A stretch of 64,000 nt of DNA from an uncultured Candidatus Rokubacteria bacterium (GTDB lineage: Bacteria; Methylomirabilota; Methylomirabilia; Rokubacteriales; DASRDR01). The notes under the pieces were generated by a model. That model was not told the DNA's origin, ran no database searches, and worked only from the letters and a program-made list of their open reading frames with translations. The translations under genes were made by a program, and so were the position numbers. Positions within the stretch are counted from its first letter, which is position 1. Each line of letters opens with the position of its first letter. Shown in pieces: positions 31,842-47,106 of the stretch. The stretch is taken from the NCBI GenBank assembly GCA_963826115.1, contig CAWGVS010000011.1, positions 96,001 through 160,000 of the forward strand, read 5' to 3'.

Positions 31842-32456
31842 ATGAGGATTCGAGTGACGACGAGGCGTCTCGGCGGGCGCGCGGCCGCGCCGGCGATCGC
31901 CGGCCTGCTGGTGGCGTCGTGGCTCTCGGCGGCGCCCGGCATCGCGGCGCCGGCGGCGCCGGAGATCGGTCGACCCGCGCCGAACTTCGCCCTGACCACT
32001 CAGCAGAGCGATCGCCTCTGGCTGACGCAGCTCCGCGGCCGGATCGTCGTGCTGGCCTTCGGATGCGCGGGGTGCGGCGCCTGCCCCGGGCTCCTCGAGC
32101 GGCTGGCCGAGGTCGAGCGCGGGCTGGGCGACGCGCCGGGCCGCCGCGTCTTCTTCGCGATGGTGACGGTCGACCCGGCGCGCGACACGCCGGCCGCGCT
32201 GCGCACGTTCGGCCGGGCGCGCGGCCTGCGCGCGCCCGCGTGGATCTTGCTCACCGAGGATCGGCACGGCCAGGTGGAGGCGGTGACACGGCTGTACGGC
32301 GTCGAGGTGCGTCGACAGGGCGACCGGGTGGACGTCGACTGCACGGTCCTCCTGATCGACGGCGCGGGAGTGCTCCGGTTCCGCTACGGCCCCGACTCGA
32401 TGGATGCCCTGCCCGGTGGCCTTCGCGCCCTTCTCGGACGGCCCGCGACGCCGTGA
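31842..32456 (+). CDS. SCO/SenC-family thioredoxin-fold protein with atypical metal ligands
   Basis: APNFALT, LRGRIVVLAF, VTVDPARDTP, WILLT, LIDGAG. The metal motif reads CAGCGACP. Confidence 0.82.
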   Translation: MRIRVTTRRLGGRAAAPAIAGLLVASWLSAAPGIAAPAAPEIGRPAPNFALTTQQSDRLWLTQLRGRIVVLAFGCAGCGACPGLLERLAEVERGLGDAPGRRVFFAMVTVDPARDTPAALRTFGRARGLRAPAWILLTEDRHGQVEAVTRLYGVEVRRQGDRVDVDCTVLLIDGAGVLRFRYGPDSMDALPGGLRALLGRPATP

Positions 32457-32510
32457 CGGGTGCCCGGGGGCGCGCGCCCGCCTGTGTCCCTTGGTGCTAG
32501 GATGGCGGCG

Positions 32511-32831
32511 ATGCGGCGCCAGCTCTTCCTCCTCGTCCTGGTCTACGTCACGCTGGATTTTGCCAATCCTCTGATGCCGGGCGCGGTGACCTTCTCCGCG
32601 GGGTCGGTCGACGTGGTCCAGGCGGACCGGACCGCGCGGATGGCGCGCCCGGAGGCGGCTGACGCGCGCCCGCCCGCCGCGCTGCCGACCTGGACCGCGA
32701 CACTCTGGGACGCGACGCCCGCCCCGTCCGTCCCAGCGTCGACCCCGGCGCCCGTCGCCACGGGCCGCTCGGCCCGCCGGGCGCCGCCTCCGTCCGATTT
32801 CGCGCCGCCCCCTCCGTCGGAAGACCACTAG
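32511..32831 (+). CDS. Small 'DH-stop' family protein, copy A (candidate leader/arrest peptide)
   Basis: MRRQLFLLVLVYVTLDFANPLMPGAVTF...RRAPPPSDFAPPPPSEDH*. Homologous to 42010 and 44522. Confidence 0.75.
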   Translation: MRRQLFLLVLVYVTLDFANPLMPGAVTFSAGSVDVVQADRTARMARPEAADARPPAALPTWTATLWDATPAPSVPASTPAPVATGRSARRAPPPSDFAPPPPSEDH

Positions 32832-32913
32832 CTCGCCCGCCTCGGAACGTCCCTGGGTCGCGCCGTGCTCTCGCACGGCGCCAGCGCCATTTCCCACCCG
32901 GAGGAGCGCCGAG

Positions 32914-33012
32914 ATGCGGGTCAAGGCAGGATGGGAAGGGATCGTCCTGGGCGTGCTGATGCTGCTGGTCGCACTGTCCCTGATCCTGGGCTTCCGATAC
33001 GTCACGGGTTGA
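32914..33012 (+). CDS. 32-aa single-pass membrane microprotein
   Basis: GGAGGAG RBS, then MRVKAGWEGIVLGVLMLLVALSLILGFRYVTG*. Below the ORF-track size cutoff. Confidence 0.6.
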   Translation: MRVKAGWEGIVLGVLMLLVALSLILGFRYVTG

Positions 33013-33014
33013 CG

Positions 33015-33389
33015 GTGGCGGATGATCCCGCCGGGGAGGTGACCGTGGGCAAGGTCGGCCGGTTCGTGACCGATCCGAAGGCCGGAGCCTTTTGCCAGAT
33101 CGTTCTGGACAGCGGCGAGAAGATCCTCGTGAGCCACGACAAGGGGGGATTCAAGGGAGGCCGCCTCAGCATCGCGACGCTCAAGTGGCTCGGCCTCGCG
33201 TCGGGCGAGATGCTCTTCGAGGTCGACCTCGACACGCCCAGGGGCCAGGCGGCCCTCCGCCGGCTCACGGCCGGCGCGCCGGAGGGGACCGCCCGGGCGA
33301 CGCCGCTCGGGGCCCTCGTGGAGTATGTGAAGGAGTGCCCCTCGGCGGCCGACGTCCGGCTCCGCGGCGCGGCGCTCGAATCTGGCTAG
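33015..33389 (+). CDS. Hypothetical protein
   Basis: GTG start just after the microprotein stop; GC3-biased codons. Confidence 0.65.
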   Translation: MADDPAGEVTVGKVGRFVTDPKAGAFCQIVLDSGEKILVSHDKGGFKGGRLSIATLKWLGLASGEMLFEVDLDTPRGQAALRRLTAGAPEGTARATPLGALVEYVKECPSAADVRLRGAALESG

Positions 33390-33390
33390 G

Positions 33391-34632
33391 CTACGCGGCG
33401 CGAGACGCTCGGCGCCCGACTCGAACGAGCCACGCCAGCACCACGCCCAGGTACGCGAGGGCCCCGCCGACGCGCGCCCACGCGGCGCCGTTGGCGCCCC
33501 ACGCGGGCGCGAGCGCCGGGAGGAGAAGGACGAGGCCGGTGGCGCTGGCGGTGGCCGCGGCCGTGGCCGCTCCGGGCTGGCCGCTGCCGAGCATCGCCGG
33601 CGTCGCCCAGAGCGTGGCCACGGCGATTCCGGTGGCGAGGAGCAGCAGGCGGAACGGCGCCACCGCGTCGGCATAGCCGGGACCCAGAGCGAGGCCGACG
33701 AGCCAGGGGGCGCCGACGACGCCCACGAGGACGACGGCTCCGGTGAGGACCACGAGGCCCCCGACCATCTGGCGGAGCAGCCGGAAGAACTCCCCGCGGT
33801 TCTCGAGCCAGGCGCGCGCCAGTTGGGGGAAGGCGGCGAAGTAGAGCGGATCGCTCAGGTCCTCGAGGACGCGCGCCAGCCGGAGCGCCGCCCCGTAGAC
33901 GCCGACCTCCGCTGCCGTCCGGAAGTAGCCGAGCAGCAGGAGGTCGAGGCGGCGCATCGCCACCTTCAGCGTGGCCCGGACGCTGCTGTGGCCGAGGAAG
34001 GCGAGCATGCCTCGCCAGTACGGACGGACGGCCCGGAGGGATGCGCTCGCGCGGGCCGGCCAGAGCTGCGCGCGGACCTCGCGGCTCGCCAGCGCCAGCA
34101 GGATCAGGGCGCCGACGACGTCGGCGGCCAGGTGGGCGACCAGGACTCCGCCGACACGGGCTCCGGCGGCCACGGCCGCGACCACCAGCCCGAGGCGACT
34201 GACCGCCTCGACCGCCGAGCAGAGGCCCAGCACGCGGAATCGGTCGAAGACCCGCATCACGGCGCGGGCGGTCCGGTCGAATGCGCTGATCACCAGGGTC
34301 GCCGCGCCGAGCACGATCAGCGGCTCGAGCGACGGATCCCCGAAGAGCCGTGTTGCGATCCAGGAGGACGTCGCCCAGACGAGGCCGAAGCCGAGGGCGG
34401 CGACCGCCGCTTCCAGCGCGACGGCGATCTCCAGCGTTGCGAGGGCCACGCCCGTCTGGCCGCGGCTCGTGAACTCGCTCAGGTACCGGGTCACCGCCTC
34501 CCACGCCCGGACGTCCACGACCAGGTGGGCGACCCCGACCACGCTCCACACGAGGGTGAGCCGGCCGAACTCCCCGGCGCCGAGCCCGCGCGCGGCGATC
34601 AGCGTCGCCAGGAACTCGGCCGCGAGCACCAC
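33391..34632 (-). CDS. Wzx/MATE-like oligosaccharide flippase
   Basis: AARGLGAGEFG, RRLDLLLLGYF...EVGVYGAA, about 12 TM helices. The frame extends upstream through LLRNAGWLL, so the true start may be earlier. Confidence 0.85.
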   Translation of the reverse strand: MVLAAEFLATLIAARGLGAGEFGRLTLVWSVVGVAHLVVDVRAWEAVTRYLSEFTSRGQTGVALATLEIAVALEAAVAALGFGLVWATSSWIATRLFGDPSLEPLIVLGAATLVISAFDRTARAVMRVFDRFRVLGLCSAVEAVSRLGLVVAAVAAGARVGGVLVAHLAADVVGALILLALASREVRAQLWPARASASLRAVRPYWRGMLAFLGHSSVRATLKVAMRRLDLLLLGYFRTAAEVGVYGAALRLARVLEDLSDPLYFAAFPQLARAWLENRGEFFRLLRQMVGGLVVLTGAVVLVGVVGAPWLVGLALGPGYADAVAPFRLLLLATGIAVATLWATPAMLGSGQPGAATAAATASATGLVLLLPALAPAWGANGAAWARVGGALAYLGVVLAWLVRVGRRASRAA

Positions 34633-34744
34633 GCCGTCTGACGCGAGCAGCCACCCGGCGTTCCGCAGGAGCCGGCGAAGTGCGGGGTCGAGGTCCGCGA
34701 GGCGCCGCCCCGCGGCGGCGCGCGGCCGCCCGCGACCCTCGGCT

Positions 34745-36985
<2,241 letters not shown>

Positions 36986-37123
36986 GTTCTAGTATAGCCA
37001 CCAACAGGCCGCGTGCGGACGGCGAGGTTGGACCCGCCTCCTCCCGCAGGATCTGGTCACCGGCCGCCCCGGGCGCCTATAATTCCCCCGCCTTGCGGTG
37101 GCGCGAGGGTGGGGGAGGCCTCA

Positions 37124-37315
37124 ATGAAGAGCAAGGACCTGCTCGTCGCCCTGTTCGCGCTCGGAGTCATCCTGCTGTCCTGGCCCTTCCTGACCGTGGT
37201 CAACCGGCCGTCGGCGGTGCTCGGGATCCCGACGCTGGTGGCGTACCTCTTCGCCGTGTGGGCCGGCATCATCGTCGTCCTGTTCTGGCTGACGGGCGGG
37301 CGCGACTCGAGTTGA
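37124..37315 (+). CDS. Small 2-TM protein upstream of the SLC5 kinase (CbrX-like position)
   Basis: GGAGG RBS; MKSKDLLVALFALGVILLSWPFL...GIPTLVAYLFAVWAGIIVVL. TATAAT at 37078. Confidence 0.8.
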   Translation: MKSKDLLVALFALGVILLSWPFLTVVNRPSAVLGIPTLVAYLFAVWAGIIVVLFWLTGGRDSS

Positions 37316-37349
37316 CGGGCGAGCGGCCTCCCCGCCGGCGGATCGGCCC

Positions 37350-40343
37350 ATGAGCTGGCTCGACTACGGGCCTCTCCTCTCCATCGTCGTCGGCTACCTC
37401 CTCTTCCTCTTCGGCGTCGCCTACTGGGCGGAGCGCACGCGCCGGCTCGAGCGACCCCGCCTGCAGATGCTCACCTACGTCCTCACCGCCTCGGTGTACT
37501 GCACGGCGTGGACCTTCTACGGCAGCGTCGGGCTCGCCGCCAACCAGGGCCTCGAGTTCCTGACCATCTACCTCGGACCGGCGCTCCTGGCGCTCCTCTG
37601 GCCGGTCCTGCTCCGCCGGCTCGTGCGCATCGTCAAGGAGCAGCGGATCACGTCGATCTCGGACTTCATCTCGAGCCGCTACGGCAAGTCGGCGCCCCTC
37701 GGCGCGCTGGTCGCCGCGCTCGTCGTGCTCGGCCTGATCCCCTACATCGCGCTCCAGCTCCAGGCGGTCTCGCAGTCATTCAAGGTGATGATCCGGCAGG
37801 AGGCGATCCTCGACCGGTTCGACCCGACGCTCCTCGTCGCCGTGGTCCTCGGACTGTTCGGGATCCTCTTCGGCGCCCGGAATCCCGACTTCACGAAGGC
37901 GCAGCGCGGGCTCCTGACCGCGGTGGCCGTCGAGTCGGTGGTGAAGCTCCTGGCGTTCCTCATCGCCGGCGCCTACGTGACGTGGATCCTTTTCGACGGC
38001 TTCGGCGACCTCTTCGGCCGGATGCTGGCCGACCCGGCGCTGAGCCGCCTGATCACCCTCGGGGAGCCGCCGGCGGCGTCCTTCTCGCGCTGGACCGCGA
38101 TGCTGATCGTGTCGATGATGGCCGTGGTGTTCCTGCCCCGGCAGTTCCACGTTCTGGTGGTACAGAACCAGGACGAGCGCCACGTCGCCGCCGCGTCGTG
38201 GATGTTTCCGCTCTATCTCTTCCTGATCAACATCTTCGTCATCCCGATCGCCGTGGCCGGTCTCCTGCTGCTCCCGCGGACGCAGGCCGACCAGTACGTG
38301 CTCCTGCTGCCGCTCTCGGCCGGGAACCAGGCGCTGTCGATTCTCGTGTTCCTCGGCGGCTTCTCGGCGGCCACCGCGATGATCGTCGTGGACTCGCTCG
38401 CCCTGTCGAAGATGCTGACCAACGACATCGTCGTGCCGATCCTGCTGCGCAACCGGAGCCGCGACATCTACCGCGCGAGCCTGCGCTCGATGCGCTTCTG
38501 CATCCTCCTCGTCGTGTTCCTGGGATACGGCTGGGCGGCGCTGGCGGCCGGGCGCTTCCTGCTGGTGGAGATGGGCCTGCTCTCGTTCGTGGCGGTGACC
38601 CAGTGCGCGCCGGCGATCCTGCTCGGGCTCGTGTGGCCGCGGGGCAACCGAAGCGGAGCGTTCGCGGGGATCTCGGCCGGCTTCGCCCTGTGGTTCTACA
38701 CGCTGATCATCCCCGTGCTGGTGAAGGAGGGCGTCCTCGCCGCGTCGATCGTGGAGGCGGGCCCGTTCGGGGTGGAGTGGCTACGGCCGACGCACCTCCT
38801 CGGCCTGACGGGGCTGGACTCCCTGAGCCACGGGATCTTCTGGTCCCTCCTGGGCAATCTTGGCGCCTATGTCCTCTTCTCGCTCGCCACGCGCCAGGAT
38901 GCGGAGGAGCGGCTCCAGGCGGCGGCGTTCACCGGACGGTTCCCGGGCGCGACGATGCCAATCGACCGGACGATCCTCACGCCGCGGGAGATCGAGCGCA
39001 TCGTCCAGCACTACGTGGGCGATCCCGAGGCGGCGGTCATCGCGGGGGAGATCCTCGGCACCAAGGCGCCGGGCGACCTCACGCCGCCCGAGCTCCTCGA
39101 GCTCCGGATCCGGCTCGAGAAGCGCCTGGCCGCCTCGCTGGGCGCGGCCGCCGCGCGCTTCATCGTGGAGGACCGCTTCACGCTCTCCCAGGGCGAGGCG
39201 GAGCGCCTGGTGGAGTCGTTCCAGGAGCTCCGCCAGTCCTTGCGGACGACCGAGGAGGAGGTCCAGCGGGGCGAGCGCCTGCTGGCAAGCGTCGTGCGCA
39301 GCGTCGACGACTGCATCTTCACCACCGACACCCGGGGCCGGCTCGTGACGGTCAATCCCGCCGGGGAGCGCCTGTTCGGCGCCGCGCAGGCTGAGCTGGG
39401 GGGTGCGCCCTGGTGGGGGCTCCTGGTCGCGGGGCCCGGCGTGTCCGAGGGGCGGACCGGCCGGGTGTTCGAGGGCGCCTACGCGTGGAAGGGCGAGGTG
39501 CGGGCGCGGACCCGCGGTGGCCGTGAGTTCCCGGCCTACCTGGCCGTGGCCCCGATCTTCGATCCCGGCGGCCAGGTCCTCGGGACGGTCGGCGTCCTGC
39601 GGAACCTGACGGAGCAGCACGAGATGCAGCGCCGCCTGATCCAGCAGGAGACCCTGGCCTCGCTCGGGCAGATGGCGGCGGGCGTGGCGCACGAGATCCG
39701 CAACCCGCTGGGCGGGATCAAGATGGCGATGGCCGTCCTCGCGAAGCACAACGGCGACGCCCTCTCCCGGGAGATGGCCGAGAGCATGCGGTCGGGGGTC
39801 GCGGACATCGAGACGATCGTGAGCCATCTCCTCGACTACACGCGGGAGACTCGCCTCGACCGCCAGGCGTTCGACGTGGAGCGGATCGTGCGCGAGGTGG
39901 TCGAGCAGCTGGGCGCGGAGGCCCGGGCGCGCGGCGTCACGCTGTCCAGCCAGGCGTTCCCGGGCGTGGTCGTGGCACTCGTCGACGGCCGCCGGCTGCG
40001 GCAGGTCCTGGTGAACGTCACGCGCAACGGTATCGAGGCGGCCGAGCGGCGCTTCGGCGGCCACGTCGGGGTGACCTGTCACGGCCGCGACGGTGTCGTC
40101 GTGCTCGAGGTCGTCGACAACGGCGTCGGGATCTTGCCCGAGGACCAGGAGCGGATCTTCCTCCCGTTCTTCACGACGAAGCCGACGGGCACTGGACTCG
40201 GGCTTGCCATCGTGAAGAAGATCGTGGACCTTCACGCCGGAGAGATTCGCGTCACGTCGGAGGCGGGGCGGGGGACGCGCGTGGTGATCTCCCTGCCCGC
40301 AGGAGTGCTGGATGAAGCGACGAGTGCTGATCGTCGAGGATGA
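37350..40343 (+). CDS. CbrA/CrbS-type sensor kinase (SLC5 transporter-STAC-PAS-HisKA-HATPase)
   Basis: VYCTAWTFYGSVG, SISDFISSRYGKS, PYIALQL, LPRQFHV, STAC-like LAASLGAAAAR, a PAS domain, AHEIRNPL, DNGVGI, FFTTK, GTGLGL. Confidence 0.93.
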   Translation: MSWLDYGPLLSIVVGYLLFLFGVAYWAERTRRLERPRLQMLTYVLTASVYCTAWTFYGSVGLAANQGLEFLTIYLGPALLALLWPVLLRRLVRIVKEQRITSISDFISSRYGKSAPLGALVAALVVLGLIPYIALQLQAVSQSFKVMIRQEAILDRFDPTLLVAVVLGLFGILFGARNPDFTKAQRGLLTAVAVESVVKLLAFLIAGAYVTWILFDGFGDLFGRMLADPALSRLITLGEPPAASFSRWTAMLIVSMMAVVFLPRQFHVLVVQNQDERHVAAASWMFPLYLFLINIFVIPIAVAGLLLLPRTQADQYVLLLPLSAGNQALSILVFLGGFSAATAMIVVDSLALSKMLTNDIVVPILLRNRSRDIYRASLRSMRFCILLVVFLGYGWAALAAGRFLLVEMGLLSFVAVTQCAPAILLGLVWPRGNRSGAFAGISAGFALWFYTLIIPVLVKEGVLAASIVEAGPFGVEWLRPTHLLGLTGLDSLSHGIFWSLLGNLGAYVLFSLATRQDAEERLQAAAFTGRFPGATMPIDRTILTPREIERIVQHYVGDPEAAVIAGEILGTKAPGDLTPPELLELRIRLEKRLAASLGAAAARFIVEDRFTLSQGEAERLVESFQELRQSLRTTEEEVQRGERLLASVVRSVDDCIFTTDTRGRLVTVNPAGERLFGAAQAELGGAPWWGLLVAGPGVSEGRTGRVFEGAYAWKGEVRARTRGGREFPAYLAVAPIFDPGGQVLGTVGVLRNLTEQHEMQRRLIQQETLASLGQMAAGVAHEIRNPLGGIKMAMAVLAKHNGDALSREMAESMRSGVADIETIVSHLLDYTRETRLDRQAFDVERIVREVVEQLGAEARARGVTLSSQAFPGVVVALVDGRRLRQVLVNVTRNGIEAAERRFGGHVGVTCHGRDGVVVLEVVDNGVGILPEDQERIFLPFFTTKPTGTGLGLAIVKKIVDLHAGEIRVTSEAGRGTRVVISLPAGVLDEATSADRRG

Positions 40344-41715
40344 CGAGGTCTTCCTGCGGCCGCTGCGGCGTGCCCTGGAGCTCGAGGGCTTCGACGTGCT
40401 GACCGCATCCAGCGGCGAGGAGGCCCTGGACCTCCTGAAGCGCGAGGACGTCGAGCTGGCTCTCACCGACCAGCGGCTGCCGGGCATGGACGGCGTGCAG
40501 GTCGTGCGGCAGCTCAAGGCCGAGCATCCCGAGATCGGCGTGGTCATGATGACCGCGTACGGGACCATCGGCGCCGCCGTCGAGGCGACCCGGCTCGGGG
40601 CCGAGGACTACCTGGTGAAGCCGTTCGAGCCCGACGAGATCCTCCTGGTCCTGCGGCGGGCGCTGGAGTTCCGCGAGCTGCGGGCGCAACGTCGCCGGTC
40701 GCTCCGCCGATACCAGGAGCGCTTCACCCTCACGAACCTCGTGGCGAACAGCCCCAAGATGCTCGACATCCTGGCGGTCCTGCGGGAGGTCGCGCAGCTC
40801 GACACGACCGTCCTCATCCACGGGGAGACGGGCGTCGGCAAGGAGCTCCTCGCCCGGACCCTCCACTTCACGGGGCCCCGGCGCGACAAGCCCTTCGTCG
40901 CGGTGAACTGCGCCGCGATCCCCGAGGAGCTGTTCGAGTCGGAGCTCTTCGGATACCGCCGGGGCGCGTTCACCGGCGCGACCGAGCCGCGACGCGGGCA
41001 CTTCCAGCTGGCGAGCGGCGGCACGCTCCTCCTGGACGAGATCGGCGAGATGCCGCTCGGGCTGCAGTCGAAGCTCTTACGCGCCATCGAGGAGAAGAAG
41101 ATCACTCCGATCGGCGCGGAGCGCCCCGTCGACATCGACGTCCGCTTCATCGCCACCACGAACCAGGACCTCCGCGAGGCCGCGGAGCGCGGGGCGTTCC
41201 GGCGCGACCTGTTCTACCGGCTGTCGGTGTTCCCGCTCCGCGTGCCGCCGCTGCGCGAGCGCGTCGAGGACATCCCGCCGCTCGCCGCGCACTTCCTCGT
41301 CGAGAGCGCCCGGCGCTGCAAGAAGAACGTCCGGAGCTTCACCCCCGCCGCCCTCGAGGCCCTGGTCCGGTACCCGTGGCCCGGGAACGCGCGCGAGCTC
41401 GAGAACGTCGTCGAGCGCGCGGTGATCACCGCGCGCGAGGACGTGATCGCCGACGTGGCGCCCTTCCTGGCGCCGAGAGGCGCGGACCGCGCCATCGTGG
41501 ACCTGACGCTGCCCTTCCGGGACGCGAAAGCGCGCGTGGTCGAGGAGTTCGAGCGGGCCTACGTGGCCGGCGTCCTCGGGCTCCATGCCGGAAAGCTCTC
41601 CGCCGCCGCCCGCCACGCCGACATGGACAACAAGAACCTCTGGGAGAAGATGGTGCGCTACGGCCTCCGCTCGCGGGCGGCCGCAGGGGAGCCGCCGCCG
41701 GACGGCGCTCCCTGA
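40312..41715 (+). CDS. Sigma54-dependent NtrC/CbrB-type response regulator
   Basis: REC domain, GETGVGKE, ESELFG, GAFTGA, LDEIGEM, WPGNARELEN, C-terminal HTH. Confidence 0.95.
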   Translation: MKRRVLIVEDDEVFLRPLRRALELEGFDVLTASSGEEALDLLKREDVELALTDQRLPGMDGVQVVRQLKAEHPEIGVVMMTAYGTIGAAVEATRLGAEDYLVKPFEPDEILLVLRRALEFRELRAQRRRSLRRYQERFTLTNLVANSPKMLDILAVLREVAQLDTTVLIHGETGVGKELLARTLHFTGPRRDKPFVAVNCAAIPEELFESELFGYRRGAFTGATEPRRGHFQLASGGTLLLDEIGEMPLGLQSKLLRAIEEKKITPIGAERPVDIDVRFIATTNQDLREAAERGAFRRDLFYRLSVFPLRVPPLRERVEDIPPLAAHFLVESARRCKKNVRSFTPAALEALVRYPWPGNARELENVVERAVITAREDVIADVAPFLAPRGADRAIVDLTLPFRDAKARVVEEFERAYVAGVLGLHAGKLSAAARHADMDNKNLWEKMVRYGLRSRAAAGEPPPDGAP

Positions 41716-41865
41716 CCTAGGGCCCCGGAACCCCGCCGGTCTCGGTCCCGGGGGCATGGCCGGTCCGAATATTGGCCGCGGCTGTCCCATCCTCCCACTT
41801 CCCACCACGTACCGGCGGCGACCTCGACATCGTCGGGAGCCTGGCCTCGATCCCGGCGTCGAGTT

Positions 41866-41901
41866 CCATGGTATCGAGGCCATGGTTCGCGGGCCATTGA
41901 G
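41866..41901. promoter_or_regulatory. Candidate enhancer (UAS): CCATGGT repeats at 14-bp spacing
   Basis: CCATGGTA at 41866, CCATGGTT at 41880, CCATTGAG at 41894. The same arrangement recurs at 44385-44419. Confidence 0.5.
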
Positions 41902-41978
41902 GGATGGCCTCCGTGTCTACCGCAGAGACTAACAGCGAACTGCGAATAACTACAGTGAGAACGGCCGCCACCACGCGT

Positions 41979-41995
41979 CTAGCACGCTCCCTGCT
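41979..41995 (+). promoter_or_regulatory. Sigma54-like promoter (variant -24 AG)
   Basis: CTAGCACGCTCCCTGCT against consensus YTGGCACG-N4-TTGCW; an identical 17-mer is at 44490. Confidence 0.55.
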
Positions 41996-42009
41996 ACAGT
42001 CCCCCGCCG

Positions 42010-42336
42010 ATGAGGATCTGGCTTCCCGGCTGGGCCCTGCTGCTCTATCTGGCGATCGACCTCGCCAACCCCTTCGTGCCCGGCGCTTTCCGGTTTACTC
42101 CCGAGGAGGGGTTCGTCTGGGTCGAAGGGATGTCTCCCGGTCGCGAGGGGGCGCGGAGCGGGGTTGCGGCGGCGAGCGTGCGAGCTCGGGCTTCGCACGT
42201 GCCAGCGTCCTCCGGGGAGCTGCAGGCCCCCACCGAGCCTGTCCGGGCGTGGCGCCTCACGACCTGGCTCACCCGTGTCCGGACCGGCGACCCTCCAGCT
42301 CGGGACCTCCCGCCGCCCGGTTCCGACGACCACTAG
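42010..42336 (+). CDS. Small 'DH-stop' family protein, copy B
   Basis: MRIWLPGWALLLYLAIDLANPFVPGAFRF...RVRTGDPPARDLPPPGSDDH*. Confidence 0.78.
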   Translation: MRIWLPGWALLLYLAIDLANPFVPGAFRFTPEEGFVWVEGMSPGREGARSGVAAASVRARASHVPASSGELQAPTEPVRAWRLTTWLTRVRTGDPPARDLPPPGSDDH

Positions 42337-42427
42337 GCCCCCATCCGCCGCTCGCACTGACCGTCACGACGAGCGCAACGCTGCGTTCGCGGTGCGCCCG
42401 TCCAGCATCGTTCTCGGAACGGTGAGT

Positions 42428-42798
42428 GAGCTGAGAACGTCGTGGAGCGCGCGGTCATCGTCGCGCGCGAGGACGTGATCGCCGACGTCGCGCCGTTCCT
42501 GGCGCCAAGCGGCGCCGACGGCGGTCGTCGATCTGACCCTGCCGTTCCGCGAGGCGAAGGCGCGGGTGTCGAGGAGTTCGAGCGGGCCTACGTGGCCGGG
42601 GTGCTGGGGCTGCACGGCGGCAAGCTCTCCGCGGCGGCCCGTCACGCCGACATGGACAACAAGAACCTCTGGGAGAAGATGGTGCGCTACGGCCTTCGCT
42701 CGCGGGCCATCGCGGGCGAGCCGCCGCCAGAATCTCTTCCTGAGTCCCGGCTGACCCTGGGTTCCGGCACCACTCGTTTCGCGGTCCCGGTGCCATGA
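42428..42798 (+). pseudogene. Duplicated C-terminal (HTH) fragment of the sigma54 regulator
   Basis: Aligns to ~41395-41700 (ERAV...EEFERAYVAGVLGLHxGKLSAAARHADMDNKNLWEKMVRYGLR). Differences are mostly synonymous, with compensating indels. ORF 42442..42798 is open. Confidence 0.75.
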
Positions 42799-42855
42799 GC
42801 CACCGGGATCCTCCGCAATCCTCAGTCATTCCGAACACTTGCTGAGCCGTTTTCG

Positions 42856-42872
42856 CTGGCATGGCGGGTGCT
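42856..42872 (+). promoter_or_regulatory. Sigma54 promoter upstream of the MFS gene
   Basis: CTGGCATG-GCGG-GTGCT: GG at -24 and GC at -12 with correct spacing. Confidence 0.6.
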
Positions 42873-42948
42873 TCCTCCCTTTCGGGTACGGGTCGAGATC
42901 TCCGACAGCCCCAGGGCTGTCCAGTCCCCCCGAACATCGGAGGAAGCA

Positions 42949-44314
42949 ATGCGCGCAGCGAAGGTTCCGCTCAACGAGCTCCGTCGCGTCGTCGTCGCGG
43001 CCTCCGTCGGCAACATCATCGAGTGGTACGACTTCTACATCTTCGGGAGCCTGGCCGCGATCCTTGCGGTCAAGTTCTTCGAGAAGGGCCACCCGGTGGC
43101 GGCCTTTCTCAGCACGGTGGCGATCTTCTCGGTCGGCTTCCTGATCCGGCCGCTGGGGGCGTTCTTCTTCGGCTGGCTCGGTGACAAGGTCGGCCGGAAG
43201 TACACCTTCATCGTCACCCTGACCGGCATGGGTCTGGCGACGGCTCTCATCGGCTTCGTGCCCACCTACCAGTCGATCGGCCTCGCCGCGGCGTTCATTC
43301 TCTTCGCCCTGCGCCTGATCCAGGGTCTCTGCCTTGGCGGGGAGTACGGCGGCGCATCACGTACGTCGCCGAGCACATCGAAGACGAGCATCGCGGGTAC
43401 TACACCGGGTGGCTCCAGACGTCGCCGACCCTCGGCATCGTCGTGTCGCTCGCGACGATCATCAGCATCCGGACCTATCTTGGCGTCGAGGCGTTCAACG
43501 ACTGGGGCTGGCGGCTGCCGTTCATCATCTCGCTTCTGCTGGTCGCCATCGCGATCTGGATCCGGCTCTCGCTCGGCGAGACGCCGATCTTCCAGGACAT
43601 GAAGGCGCGGGGTCGCACTACCACCAACCCCTGGCGCGAGGCGTTTCTCAGCAGCAACTTCAAGTACGTGGCGATCGCCAGCGTGGTCGTGCTAGGGGCA
43701 AGGCTGCGTCTGGTACAGCGGACAGTTCTGGGCGCTGTACTTCCTGCAGACGGTCAAGAAGCTCGACGTGCTGACGTCGAGCTGGATCGTCGGCATCGCG
43801 CTCCTGATCGCGACCCCGACCTTGATCTTCTGGGGCTGGCTCTCCGACAAGATCGGCCGAAAGCCGATCATCCTCGGCGGGATGGCCCTGGCCTCGCTCG
43901 ACCTACTACCCGCTCTACATCCGCGCTCGGAAACTACACGAACCCCGGAGCCGTCAACTACCCGATGGCCATTCTGATCGTGGTGATCCTGGTCAACTAC
44001 GTTGGCATGACCTACGGCCCGATCGGGCGTTCCTGGCCGAGTTCTTCCCCAGCCGCATCCGCTACACGTCGGTGTCGGTGCCCGTACCACATCGGCAACG
44101 GCTGGGGTGGCGGCCTGGTCCCGATCGTCACGACCTCGATGTACCTCTCGACCGGCAGCGTGGGCTACGCGCTGATCTATCCCATCGTGGTGCCGGCGGT
44201 CATGTTTCTCATCGCGATCTTCGTGATGCCGGAGACTCGCAAGCACAGCATCTGGGAAGAAGGGGCGATCGAAGCGAGCCGCAGTCGCAGCCTCAGCCGG
44301 GTAGGCAGGACTAG
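42949..44314 (+). CDS. MFS metabolite:H+ symporter (MHS family), frameshifted in this sequence
   Basis: GNIIEWYDFYIFG, RPLGAFFFGWLGDKVGRK, GGEYGGA, WGWRLPF, SDKIGRKP, YHIGNGWGGG, MPETR, spread over several frames. Confidence 0.85.
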
Positions 44315-44351
44315 GGGCTCTGCACGGCTTGTCGGTGCGGGGCCTTTCCTT
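44315..44351 (+). terminator. Probable intrinsic terminator
   Basis: GGCTCTGCAC / GTGCGGGGCC stem (two G-U pairs) followed by TTTCCTT. Confidence 0.55.
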
Positions 44352-44384
44352 CATGCAGAGTGCTGAGTGCCGAGCGATTGATGA

Positions 44385-44506
44385 CCATGGTAAGGAACCA
44401 TGGTACTGAAACCGTAGGGTAGTTGAGCGACTCCAAGGATGCGACTGATCCAACTCTCGGATTTGCCTGAAGAATCAGGATGAGTCGGTCTAGCACGCTC
44501 CCTGCT
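44385..44506 (+). promoter_or_regulatory. Second UAS-repeat + sigma54-like promoter module
   Basis: CCATGGTA at 44385 and 44398, CCGTAGGG at 44412; CTAGCACGCTCCCTGCT at 44490-44506. Confidence 0.55.
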
Positions 44507-44521
44507 TGCAGTCATCCCCCG

Positions 44522-44840
44522 ATGATCAGGAGGCTTCCAAGTTGGGCCGTGCTGATCTACCTGGCGATCGACCTCGCCAACCCCTTCGTTCCCGGTGCCT
44601 TCCGGTTCACCCCGAGATGGGCTTGTCTGGGTGGAAGCACGTTCGGCGTGCGCGAGGCGCCGAGGCAAAGTCTCGCAGACAGAGAGTCCGCTCGATCTCT
44701 CCCGCGCCGGTGTCCGACGGCGGTCTTCTCGCCACTGGAGCGCCCGCACCCCGCTGGGTACCTCGCTGTCTGGCTGGTCCGCGTCAGGACCGGCGATCCT
44801 CCGCGCGGACCTCCCTCCGTCCGACTCCGACGACCACTAG
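44522..44840 (+). CDS. Small 'DH-stop' family protein, copy C (frameshifted in this sequence)
   Basis: MIRRLPSWAVLIYLAIDLANPFVPGAFRFTP / DGLVWVE / WLVRVRTGDPP / DLPPSDSDDH* across two frames. Confidence 0.7.
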
Positions 44841-44896
44841 GCCCCGTCCGCCGACGCGTGCTGCACGAGAGCGCAGCGGTTGCGTCGGAGGGCTCC

Positions 44897-45166
44897 ATGG
44901 CCGACCTGAGTGAACGTCAGAAGCAGGAGTACTGGCGGTACAACATCAAGCTCACCACCATCCTGCTGACGATCTGGTTCGTGGTGACGTATCTGATCTC
45001 GGGCCTGTGGGCGAGCTGGCTCAACCAGTTCTCGTTCCTCGGTTTCCCGCTCGGCTACTACATGGCGGCCCAGGGGGCGCTCGCGATCTTCGTCATCGAG
45101 ATCGCCGTCTACGCCCGCCTGATGAACCGTAAGGACATCGAGTTCGGCATCCGCGAGGAGGGCTAG
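44897..45166 (+). CDS. Small subunit of solute:sodium symporter (DUF4212-like)
   Basis: YWRYNIKL...WFVVT...LGFPLGYYMAAQGA...YARLMNRKDIEFG. Confidence 0.9.
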   Translation: MADLSERQKQEYWRYNIKLTTILLTIWFVVTYLISGLWASWLNQFSFLGFPLGYYMAAQGALAIFVIEIAVYARLMNRKDIEFGIREEG

Positions 45167-45171
45167 CCGCC

Positions 45172-47106
45172 ATGGGGATCAGCCTCCAGAGGATCTTCGG
45201 ACTCTACACGGTCGGGTTCCTCGGCGTCACCATCCTGATCGGCATCGGTGAGGCGATCGGGCTGTTCAGCAACCAGATGATCGGCTGGATCTTCATGGCG
45301 CTGTCGCTGGCCATCTACGTCGTGATCGGCGTGCTCACCCGGACGTCCAATCCCGACCAGTACTACGTGGCCGGGCGCGGCGTGCCCGCGGTGTACAACG
45401 GGATGGCCACCGGATCCGACTGGATGTCGGCGGCGTCGTTCATCTCGATGGGCGGGGCGCTCTCCGCCCAGGGCTTCGCCGGGCTTGCCTACGTCATGGG
45501 CTGGACGGGCGGTTATCTCCTGCTCGCCGTCCTGCTCGGCCCGTACCTTCGCCAGTTCGGGGCGTACACCATTCCGGACTTCCTGGGGGCGCGTTTCGGC
45601 GGCAACATCCCCCGGGTAATCGGCGTGATCGCCGCGATCGCCTGCTCGTTCACCTATCTGATCGCGCAGGTGACTGGGGTGGGACTGATCGTTTCCCGGT
45701 TCGTCGGCCTCGACTTCAACGTCGGCGTCTTCGTCGGGCTCCTGGGCGTGCTGTTCTGCTCGGTACTCGGCGGGATGAAGTCCGTCACGTGGACCCAGGT
45801 GGCCCAGTACATCATCCTGATCATCTCGTACCTGGTTCCCGTCGTGTACCTGTCGTGGACCATTTTCGCGATTCCGATCCCGCAGCTGACCTACGGCCGG
45901 CTTCTCCATCAGAACAACACCCGTGCGCTCCAGATCACCGGCGACGCCAAGGAGAAGGAGACGCGGGGGCTCTGGCAGAAGGAGGCCGACGAGGCCAACG
46001 CCAAGATCAAGGCCGGCGGCCTGCCGGACGCCGACGTCGACAAGCTCAAGGCCCAGGCCACCCTCGCGGCGCGCCAGGCGATCGCGCCAGCGACCAGCGA
46101 GACCGCGCAGTTCGGCCGCTACCTCACGGTGCCGAGCGGCGTCGGCATGTGGAACTTCCTCGCGCTGACGTTCTGTCTCATGGTGGGGACCGCGGGCCTG
46201 CCCCACATCCTGACTCGCTACTACACCACGCCCTCCGTGCGTCAGGCGCGCACCTCCGTGGCGTGGTCCCTGTTCTTCATCTTCCTGCTGTACTTCACGG
46301 CGCCGGCCTACGCCGCCTTCGCGCGGTTCACGATCTACGCGAAGCTGGTGGGGACCCAGATCAAGGAGCTGCCGCGCTGGATCACCCTCTGGGCGCCGGC
46401 CGGCCTGTTCAGCGTCGTCGACAAGAACGGCGACGGCATCGTGCAGTGGGCGGACTTCGTGATCCGGTCAACCGACTTCGTCGTGCTGTCGATGCCGGAG
46501 ATCGCGGGGCTGCCGTTCGTGATCACCGGCCTCGTCATGGCCGGCGGCCTGGCGGCGGCCCTGTCCACCGCCGACGGCCTCCTCCTGACGATCGCCAACG
46601 CGATCTCCCACGACCTCTACTACAACGTCATCAACCCCCGGACCTCGCTGGCCGTGCGATTGACGATCACCAAGGTCCTGCTGATCGTCACCGCGCTCGT
46701 GGCGGCGTACGTCGCCACGTACCGGGTGGCGATCATCGTCGAGCTGGTGGCCTGGGCGTTCAGCCTGGCCGGCGCGTCGTTCTTCCCCGCGCTGGTGATG
46801 GGCATCTGGTGGAAACGCGCCAACAAGACCGGGGCGTGCTGGGGCATGGTCGTCGGCCTCGGCGTCACGGCCTACTACATGATCGGAAGCCGGTTCTACG
46901 GTGTGTCGTGGTTCGGCACCCAGACGATCGCCTCGGCGATCTTCGGGCTGCCGGCCGGCATCCTCACAATCTGGATCGTGTCCCTCCTGACGGCGCCGCC
47001 GCCCCGGGAGGTGCAGGATCTCGTGGTGAGCGTGCGGTATCCGAAGTCCGGCCAGGCCTACAGGGGCGATCCGCTCGGTCGCGACGTGGCCAGCGCCGCC
47101 CGCTAG
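45172..47106 (+). CDS. Sodium/solute symporter, ActP-like (VC_2705 subfamily)
   Basis: YYVAGRGVPAVYNGMATGSDWMSAASFISM, YTIPDFLGARF, GTAGLPHILTRYYT, AAALSTADGLLL. Confidence 0.93.
   Translation: MGISLQRIFGLYTVGFLGVTILIGIGEAIGLFSNQMIGWIFMALSLAIYVVIGVLTRTSNPDQYYVAGRGVPAVYNGMATGSDWMSAASFISMGGALSAQGFAGLAYVMGWTGGYLLLAVLLGPYLRQFGAYTIPDFLGARFGGNIPRVIGVIAAIACSFTYLIAQVTGVGLIVSRFVGLDFNVGVFVGLLGVLFCSVLGGMKSVTWTQVAQYIILIISYLVPVVYLSWTIFAIPIPQLTYGRLLHQNNTRALQITGDAKEKETRGLWQKEADEANAKIKAGGLPDADVDKLKAQATLAARQAIAPATSETAQFGRYLTVPSGVGMWNFLALTFCLMVGTAGLPHILTRYYTTPSVRQARTSVAWSLFFIFLLYFTAPAYAAFARFTIYAKLVGTQIKELPRWITLWAPAGLFSVVDKNGDGIVQWADFVIRSTDFVVLSMPEIAGLPFVITGLVMAGGLAAALSTADGLLLTIANAISHDLYYNVINPRTSLAVRLTITKVLLIVTALVAAYVATYRVAIIVELVAWAFSLAGASFFPALVMGIWWKRANKTGACWGMVVGLGVTAYYMIGSRFYGVSWFGTQTIASAIFGLPAGILTIWIVSLLTAPPPREVQDLVVSVRYPKSGQAYRGDPLGRDVASAAR

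Follow-up and report, generated by a model that had tools for sequence, protein, structure and literature searches.

CutF (DUF2946) of Rhodobacter capsulatus carries a Sec signal, a sensor motif early in its exported part and a Pro-rich C-terminus, is followed by a stem-loop that shields the next Shine-Dalgarno (SD) sequence, and acts via co-translational export (PMC9973294; bioRxiv 10.1101/2025.02.05.636593). CruR is reported to act through Rho-dependent termination (PMC9973294), and the arrest peptides NSP-stop, NAP-stop and DGMK-stop stall when the stop codon occupies the A site (PMC10987492). Fujiwara et al. 2024 (PMC10987492) recognize monitoring substrates by (i) a sec or yidC gene downstream, (ii) an N-terminal signal or transmembrane (TM) segment, (iii) a conserved C-terminus and (iv) a spacer of more than 30 residues. 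Here we describe the DH family of small open reading frames (ORFs), which has three copies (A, B and C) in a window of 64,000 nucleotides (nt) from an uncultured Candidatus Rokubacteria bacterium (contig CAWGVS010000011.1, positions 96,001 to 160,000). The anatomy of the family suggests, without proving, that it controls the translation of the genes behind it, and we put at about 0.4 the probability that a DH ORF is a cis-acting translational leader, like CutF or MifM, with a pause at termination.

The three copies in the window are the following.

32511-32831, plus strand: copy A, a DH-family ORF with its ATG at 32511, 106 amino acids (aa), end ...RRAPPPSDFAPPPPSEDH-TAG, profile match E 1.2e-26.
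42010-42336, plus strand: copy B, an intact DH-family ORF, 108 aa, end ...PPPGSDDH-TAG, profile match E 5.9e-20.
44522-44840, plus strand: copy C, a decayed or mis-assembled DH-family copy, with the motif in the ATG frame and the C-terminus in another frame.

All three contain the motif Y-x3-D-[FL]-ANP-x2-PGA-x2-F behind a short hydrophobic stretch, and all three have the nucleotides GACCACTAG in common, as an earlier note on this sequence had reported. That note also described three ORFs of about 107 aa with a Pro-rich tail ending in S-[ED]-D-H, which is correct for A and B only. Copy A is intact, with the last codons GAA GAC CAC TAG at 32820-32831 and the protein end ...PPPPSEDH, and copy B ends in GAC GAC CAC TAG (PGSDDH); contigs of run X1 are identical to the copy B locus over 41900-42135 and 42166-42346. 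Copy C is not a single ORF: the distance from the ATG at 44522 to the TAG at 44838-44840 is 319 nt, and relative to B there are five indels (-2, -4, -1, +1, -2) between the ATG frame and the DH-TAG frame. The ATG frame holds the N-terminal motif and WLVRVRTGDPP and continues in frame into DUF4212 to 45166, while another frame holds LVWVE and DLPPSDSDDH-TAG; the last 12 nucleotides, too, are the same. On the contig of a related strain, GA is inserted behind 44614 and G behind 44635, and copy C is in frame there at both places. Because indels split the two frames and the related strain is in frame at two sites, copy C in this genome is either decayed or mis-assembled. Two further members are broken, both of them before DUF4212: in L014 (6001-6306) a TAG replaces the conserved Trp codon and is followed by an in-frame continuation to ...DDDH-TAG, and in L045 (from genome G228) a 1-nt frameshift lies ahead of the C-terminal motif and the frame runs into DUF4212, like copy C.

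The suggestion in the earlier note that the family is undescribed has held up. Neither A nor B has a match in Pfam or NCBIfam (E<=0.01 for Pfam), and the family profile, which we built from 86 members, has no match among the PDB sequences. We found nothing in print on the DH family (the supplementary lists of PMC10987492 and PMC9973294 are outside the scope of that statement and may contain members), there is no mention of Rokubacteria or of any taxon beginning with Methylomirabil in the main text of PMC10987492, and the family is previously undescribed. A word-indexed search with B returned 72 proteins, nearly all of 107-109 aa, with a conserved N-terminus, a variable middle and the conserved C-terminus WLVRVRTGDPPARDxPPPDSDDH, and an exhaustive phmmer search with A returned 141 cluster representatives (50% identity, E<=0.001), typically of 100-109 aa, of which 92 have DH at the C-terminus. 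The relatives of the window's genome are metagenome-assembled genomes of Candidatus Rokubacteria/Methylomirabilota. A survey of copy number by profile, as the earlier note had proposed, gives five to six copies for the genome of the window and matches in 119/251 genomes of the phylum with 1-5 copies each (this tally takes in the unpublished genome G076), nearly all of them in two families of one order (19/20 in f1 and 97/159 in f2, with 2/21 in f7 and 0 in the others).

The window has a G+C content of about 72%, the source genome is 6.2 Mb, and long spurious ORFs are frequent in the window, so one can ask whether the DH ORFs are genes at all or are chance open frames lying over a conserved non-coding element, a reading that would also suit the similarity of B and C at the DNA level, upstream region included. 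We consider this reading hardly credible. Inside the motif, most of the changes that separate A from B are synonymous or conservative, members stay at 98-112 aa although the linker varies freely, in-frame G+C at third codon positions (GC3) is 0.85-0.9 along the ORF, like that of this genome's genes, and the frame is preserved down to 30% identity. Given the gene-like GC3, the constant length and the 141 representatives, the computation shows that the DH ORFs are a real, coding family, and in our best reading they are translated genes specific to Rokubacteria.

By count over the members, the first 7 residues contain 2 K/R (median) and precede a hydrophobic run with a median length of 9 residues. 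This stretch, of 9-12 residues, leads into the near-invariant D-[FL]-A-N-P-x-x-P-G-A...F. Conservation is highest over the N-terminal 35 residues, where D, N, P, G, A and F are invariant. AlphaFold2 run on copy A with the family alignment places a helix at residues 2-18 and a beta hairpin at residues 26-35 and leaves the rest without secondary structure (predicted local distance difference test score, pLDDT, 72.8; predicted template modeling score, pTM, 0.31). Copy A does contain RRAPPP, as had been noted, and RAPP was considered as an arrest motif of the ApdA/ApdP type and rejected, with RAPP in 2/166 members and [RHQ][AG]PP in 3/166; since RAPP-like motifs are found in only these 3, the RRAPPP of copy A is incidental.

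These features can also be read as those of a small protein that is exported or anchored in the membrane and acts in trans, and we regard this as the main rival and as a real, if doubtful, possibility. Its N-terminal helix and DxANPxxPGA hairpin would recognize a partner common to all members, its disordered Pro/Ala/Arg linker and its C-terminal [ED]-D-H, which offers a free carboxylate plus His, would contact a metal, a proton-sensitive site or a protease or chaperone, and the spacer that masks the next SD would be ordinary translational coupling, fixing the stoichiometry with the downstream membrane proteins. The concentration of conservation in the N-terminal 35 residues, the protein-type substitutions and the normal codon bias all fit such a protein, and conserved residues at a C-terminus can serve as ligands or as recognition tags. 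However, no globular fold is predicted for it.

Compared with CutF (PMC9973294; bioRxiv 10.1101/2025.02.05.636593), the DH family has the same general layout: fewer than 150 aa, the first position in an operon with a same-strand gene downstream, a Sec-type N-terminal signal (a putative one in the DH family), a conserved motif near the beginning of the part that is exported, or in the DH family would be, a C-terminus rich in Pro (PP within the last 15 residues in 112/166 members) and a stem-loop, here a predicted one, shielding the SD. In contrast to CutF, the DH family ends in a near-invariant [ED]-D-H abutting the stop rather than in a PPP motif, appears to be leaderless, is confined to one phylum, and precedes genes for ion and solute transporters and Band_7 proteins rather than metal-detoxification genes. 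The DUF2946 profile matches 0/86 members at E<=1, and a CxxxC motif occurs in just 2/166. Among named clusters, a language-model search placed one named DUF2946 (0.90, 77 shared features) and one named SecM_small (0.89, below the search's own line of 0.9) nearest to the family, scores of a kind that often arise by chance, and the SecM and SecM_small profiles match none of the 86 members. Of the features listed by Fujiwara et al. 2024 (PMC10987492), iii and iv are present in the DH family (for the spacer, the helix ends near residue 18-25 in ORFs of 98-112 aa), the N-terminus with its K/R, hydrophobic run and predicted helix is a candidate for ii, and a sec or yidC gene follows the DH ORF in 0/100 loci.

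The likeness to the leaders of the MifM, SecM and VemP type consists of an N-terminal signal or anchor (putative in the DH family), a spacer of more than 30 aa, an SD-sequestering stem-loop (predicted in the DH family), and a conserved C-terminal segment of about 20 residues with aromatic and basic residues and an acidic cluster beside the stall point, but in the DH family the pause is proposed at termination, not during elongation. In this respect the closer comparison is with the X-stop peptides, whose conserved last residues also directly abut the stop codon, although the last residue of the DH family is His after two acidic residues and not Pro or Lys. TnaC and SpeFL are shorter than DH ORFs, which have in addition an external N-terminal domain and in which arrest is putative. 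The mycobacterial leaderless attenuator ORFs (bioRxiv 10.1101/834739) are likewise leaderless first cistrons of polycistronic mRNAs that regulate the genes behind them, as is proposed for the DH family, but they are short, polycysteine and amino-acid sensing, whereas DH ORFs have about 105 codons, a signal-like N-terminus and a fixed C-terminus.

We took 100 distinct members with their flanks; most counts of ORF ends and upstream regions cover 91 or 92 members. His is at -1 in 84/91, Asp at -2 in 78/91 and Glu or Asp at -3 in 89/91, and further back from the end are a Pro/Ser-rich stretch, Arg at -17/-16 (51/91 at -17) and Trp at -22 (27/91). The stop codon is TAG in 67, TGA in 15 and TAA in 9 of the 91 members, so the UAG, at which the earlier note placed the stall, is not invariant. 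Long ORFs of this genome end in TGA (67%), TAG (30%) or TAA (3%) and about half of its small ORFs in TAG, and because of this background the three TAG stops in the window are by themselves unremarkable. The base after the stop is C in 68/92 members vs 41-44% in the background. Where codon -3 encodes Glu, it is GAA in 49 and GAG in 11 members (32820-32822 in copy A), vs GAA in 6.3% of Glu codons genome-wide, and GAA-GAC makes up 5.6% of Glu-Asp pairs in the genome. GC3 falls to 0.46 at codon -3 only, the other 39 C-terminal positions having values of 0.69-1.0, mostly 0.8-0.95. A comparison of the base at -7 with downstream tetramers gave no pairing partner that explains the GAA, and we rejected a small hairpin, GA[N]G with C[N']TC, that would enclose the stop codon, as base -7 does not covary with the downstream tetramer.

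In E. coli, inefficient termination is associated with acidic residues at -2 and with C as the base following the stop. Taken together with the tract after the stop, described next, these counts show by computation that the end of the ORF and the tract behind it are constrained at the nucleotide level, beyond the needs of the protein. A protein acting in trans would leave the synonymous constraint to GAA, the bias towards TAG and towards C at +4, and the pyrimidine tract after the stop unexplained.

The tract at +1..+30 after the stop is rich in C and poor in G (C 0.48, G 0.26, vs C 0.39, G 0.38 in background co-oriented spacers), and nearly every stop is followed at 20-35 nt by a GC-rich hairpin. 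In minimum free energy (MFE) folds, at least 3 of the 5 SD bases are paired with the first 30 nt in 54/81 loci vs 69/250 in the background. The ensemble probability of this pairing is 0.60 vs 0.24, and ensemble SD accessibility is 0.20 in the family vs 0.37. Restricting the count to +3..+15, the part that a terminating ribosome would cover, at least 3 bp form with the segment from SD to start in 57/81 loci vs 85/250. By these folds, the next SD is predicted to be masked by the spacer above the background level. RNAalifold on spacers of mixed context found 4 pairs or none; MAFFT cannot align these, and the TerC group alone was usable. In the consensus fold of that group, this pairing between tract and SD forms an outer stem that encloses a GC hairpin, and both partners have changed in 3 of its pairs; the spacers behind copies A and C are predicted to fold like it.

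32832-32913, plus strand: copy A spacer, with a predicted inner hairpin 32860-32868/32873-32881; MFE -39.8 kcal/mol, z -2.1, 6/200 shuffles as good.
44841-44896, plus strand: copy C spacer, with a predicted hairpin; MFE -32 kcal/mol, z -2.1, 10/200 shuffles as good.

For copy A, the predicted outer stems 32841-32845:32909-32913 and 32850-32858:32896-32905 cover the SD GGAGGAG (32900-32906). For copy C, the 5' arm of the hairpin begins 8 nt beyond the U of UAG, and its predicted pairing partner is the SD of DUF4212 (GGAGGG).

The same tract could act on transcription instead of translation. It could be a Rho loading site, or the GC hairpin could be a terminator that has no U tract, and a ribosome paused on the DH-stop would block either. 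TnaC and SpeFL offer a parallel in their leader-type control, the reported mode of action of CruR counts in the same direction, and the C-rich, G-poor composition, the hairpin after nearly every stop and the probable position of the ORF as a leaderless first cistron are all as one would expect. Nonetheless, we consider such a transcriptional leader improbable: copy A has no terminator-like site bearing a T run, the spacers are short (~80-115 nt), and the predicted pairing of the tract with the SD accounts for its composition without Rho.

What follows the spacer varies from locus to locus. The first called downstream gene is co-oriented in 85/100 loci (with a crude gene caller), and several of the 12 exceptions are artefacts of the caller, since DUF4212 or a micro-ORF demonstrably follows there. 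An ORF preceded by an SD starts within 160 nt in 81/92 loci, mostly 80-115 nt after the stop, and the spacer length is similar irrespective of the downstream gene. The co-orientation and spacing of the next ORF are shown by the computation, and the DH ORF is almost always the first cistron. The earlier note had expected co-oriented genes downstream, which is what most loci have, although copy B has lost its own. The downstream genes include Na_H_Exchanger with TrkA_N, Band_7 x2, TerC, CitMHS_2, DUF4212 with SSF, a gene for a 113-aa protein and micro-ORFs of ~30 aa. Paralogues cluster on the family tree by downstream context, and therefore the association is old. A protein working in trans would have to serve, as a single conserved small protein, at least 6 structurally unrelated partners, and the similar spacer length also argues against it, but in coupled operons a downstream SD is often masked by a distant segment.

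Behind the three copies in the window we find the following.

32914-33012, plus strand: micro-ORF of 32 aa, a single helix, MRVKAGWEGIVLGVLMLLVALSLILGFRYVTG, with homologues of 29-32 aa behind other family loci.
33045-33389, plus strand: ORF of 114 aa (VGKVGRFVTDPKAGAFCQ...), whose homologues are the family's commonest first large downstream gene (20 loci).
42337-42798, plus strand: remnant of the copy B spacer, then a partial duplicate of the 3' end of a regulator gene (42442-42798); no intact partner follows B.
44897-47106, plus strand: DUF4212 small subunit (44897-45166) and sodium:solute symporter (45172-47106), forming an operon behind copy C.

Copies A and C thus precede small membrane-protein genes across spacers predicted to form hairpins, in agreement with the earlier note. 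The order behind A is micro-ORF, then 114-aa gene. A micro-ORF of 29-32 aa starts 78-147 nt after the stop of the DH ORF in 24/85 loci, with the pattern M..KEG[WY]EG[IL], ~19 hydrophobic residues, then K/R-L..G, and precedes TerC, CitMHS_2, Na_H_Exchanger or the 113-aa gene or is sometimes alone before a convergent gene. These loci include L022, L027, L034, L037, L039, L046, L064 and L083, and the micro-ORF is below the usual annotation size. The 114-aa ORF has no Pfam match, and an Atlas search gave no usable match; the pattern of the 113-114 aa family is MGKVGRFVTDPKAGA.C.I.LDSGEKILV.HDKGGFKGG.LSI... (for example, L026:1934-2272). Behind copy B are the spacer remnant, which aligns with DUF4212-type spacers, then the diverged partial duplicate of the last ~115 codons of the 40312-41715 regulator gene, and then a frameshifted gene of the major facilitator superfamily (MFS).

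As a leader that acts mainly in cis, the DH ORF might work as follows; we infer, rather than observe, the pause, the export, the sensing and the action in cis. The N-terminus, with its 2 K/R, hydrophobic stretch and DxANPxxPGA hairpin, would exit the ribosome and be targeted or exported while the last ~25 residues fill the exit tunnel, where W at -22, RR at -17/-16, the Pro-rich stretch and [ED]-D-H would lie. Termination would be slow in the context E/D-D-H-UAG-C, and a ribosome on the stop codon would cover the pyrimidine-rich tract directly downstream. Once uncovered, this tract would pair with the SD and start region of the next ORF, around the inner GC hairpin. With the pairing tract covered by a stopped ribosome, translation of the next ORF would come to depend on ribosome passage and on dwell at the DH-stop, and the dwell time might be set by what the N-terminal motif meets outside the membrane, either an export force or a bound ligand or ion. 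A wider form of this scheme is a nascent-chain switch operating across the phylum, in which the exported DxANPxxPGA motif senses the state of the envelope (periplasmic cations, pH or proton-motive force) and signals through the chain to a release-factor-dependent pause at E/D-D-H-UAG. A single type of sensor, present in 1-5 copies per genome, would then control how much is translated of the Na+/H+ and K+/H+ exchangers, Na+/solute symporters, TerC, CitMHS permeases and Band_7 membrane-quality proteins. We think that this wider form is unlikely.

Several observations weigh against a cis-acting leader with a pause at the stop codon. With the tract after the stop shuffled, SD pairing persists in 47%, and much of the effect on SD pairing is therefore one of composition. 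The duplex energy of the tract with its own SD region (cis -18.1, trans -16.8, background -18.9) is a measure that does not discriminate, and forcing the 16 nt at the stop to be unpaired raises the predicted SD accessibility only from 0.20 to 0.31. Because the members compared are relatives of one another and the background set rests on a crude gene caller, the p-values of the contrasts between family and background overstate their significance. A survey of stop codons in homologues, another proposal of the earlier note, finds TAG enriched (67/91 vs 30% of long ORFs) but also at least 18 changes of stop codon on the family tree. The Band_7 clade retains TGA (8/10 members), and TAA is confined to the tips. 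Since the stop has changed repeatedly and TGA has been kept in the Band_7 clade, TAG is favoured and not required. In a few loci (L039, L064) the DH ORF is followed by a micro-ORF of 30 aa alone and then by a convergent gene. Copy B is intact and has no partner, while C, before DUF4212/SSF, is broken, which is easier to understand if the protein acts in trans or if C is mis-assembled. Finally, the conservation of the N-terminal 35 residues exceeds the need of a mere targeting signal and fits specific binding by the finished protein at least as well. It is this strong N-terminal conservation, the intact B without a partner beside a broken C, and the stand-alone pairs of DH ORF and micro-ORF that keep the trans-acting protein alive as an explanation.

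If the cis-acting leader is correct, the DH family would be the first family of arrest or pause leaders described in an uncultured phylum and the first tied to operons for ion transport and membrane quality, not to Sec/YidC or metal detoxification. It would also be one more case of stalling at termination beside the X-stop peptides. The ~200 diverged copies, which share their last three codons, their stop context and the unexplained synonymous GAA, are an unusually clean natural data set that could reveal the features of a nascent chain that slow a release factor. If instead the protein acts in trans, this would still be a new and widespread small-protein family of Rokubacteria with a conserved partner micro-ORF of 30 aa. 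The DH family and the micro-ORF are both absent from current annotation libraries.

Upstream of the DH ORFs, 65/91 members have a TANNNT (-10) box at a distance of 5-10 nt from the start (mode 6-7) vs 2.8% in shuffles. Typical boxes are TAGAAT, TACAAT, TAGGAT and TACAGT, often with TGn ahead. Among the remaining 26 upstream sequences, 13 have a sigma54-type -24/-12 element (TGGCA[CT]-N6-TGC or TAGCAC-N6-TGC, read by eye) 14-17 nt before the start, and all 13 of these members precede DUF4212/SSF operons. An SD-like word is found upstream of just 16/91 members. This placement of the promoter, which the computation shows, implies that the mRNAs of the family are probably leaderless or nearly so. 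For the copies in the window, the upstream features are these.

32495-32503, plus strand: copy A promoter, extended -10 element TGC-TAGGAT, 7 nt before ATG 32511, read from the sequence; putative leaderless start.
37350-41715, plus strand: membrane PAS histidine kinase (37350-40343) and sigma54-dependent response regulator (40312-41715), upstream of B.
41860-41995, plus strand: copy B upstream region, with CCATGGT repeats at 41865-41895 (candidate activator sites) and the sigma54-like TAGCACGCTCCCTGC at 41980-41994.
44380-44505, plus strand: copy C upstream region, with CCATGGTA repeats and the sigma54-like TAGCACGCTCCCTGC at 44491-44505.

No SD is present ahead of A, B or C, and each has a candidate promoter, a -10 box in A and, in B and C, the sigma54-like element TAGCACG-N4-CTGC 15-16 nt before the ATG; the earlier note was right on both counts. 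A scan of copy A for a canonical sigma70 promoter and an intrinsic terminator, which requires a -35 box and a T run, found none. The upstream layout of copy B is also found in L011-L015. In the B subfamily, the CCATGGT repeats lie 90-140 nt upstream, and the -24 element is TAGCAC instead of TGGCAC at the window sites and in most orthologues (L011, L012, L014 and L015), whereas L013 has TGGCAC.

The region 41900-44900 has a lower G+C content (0.64-0.67) and a rearranged appearance. The MFS (Sugar_tr) gene at 42868-44366 is split into two frames (42868-43602 and 43443-44366), by either a frameshift in a pseudogene or an assembly indel, and contigs of other runs have single-base length differences in this region at 43694, 44026 and 44080-44084. 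A gene of the SCO1/SenC type with a thioredoxin fold (31890-32456) ends 54 nt before copy A, and its presence there is a conserved trait of the A subfamily (9 loci).

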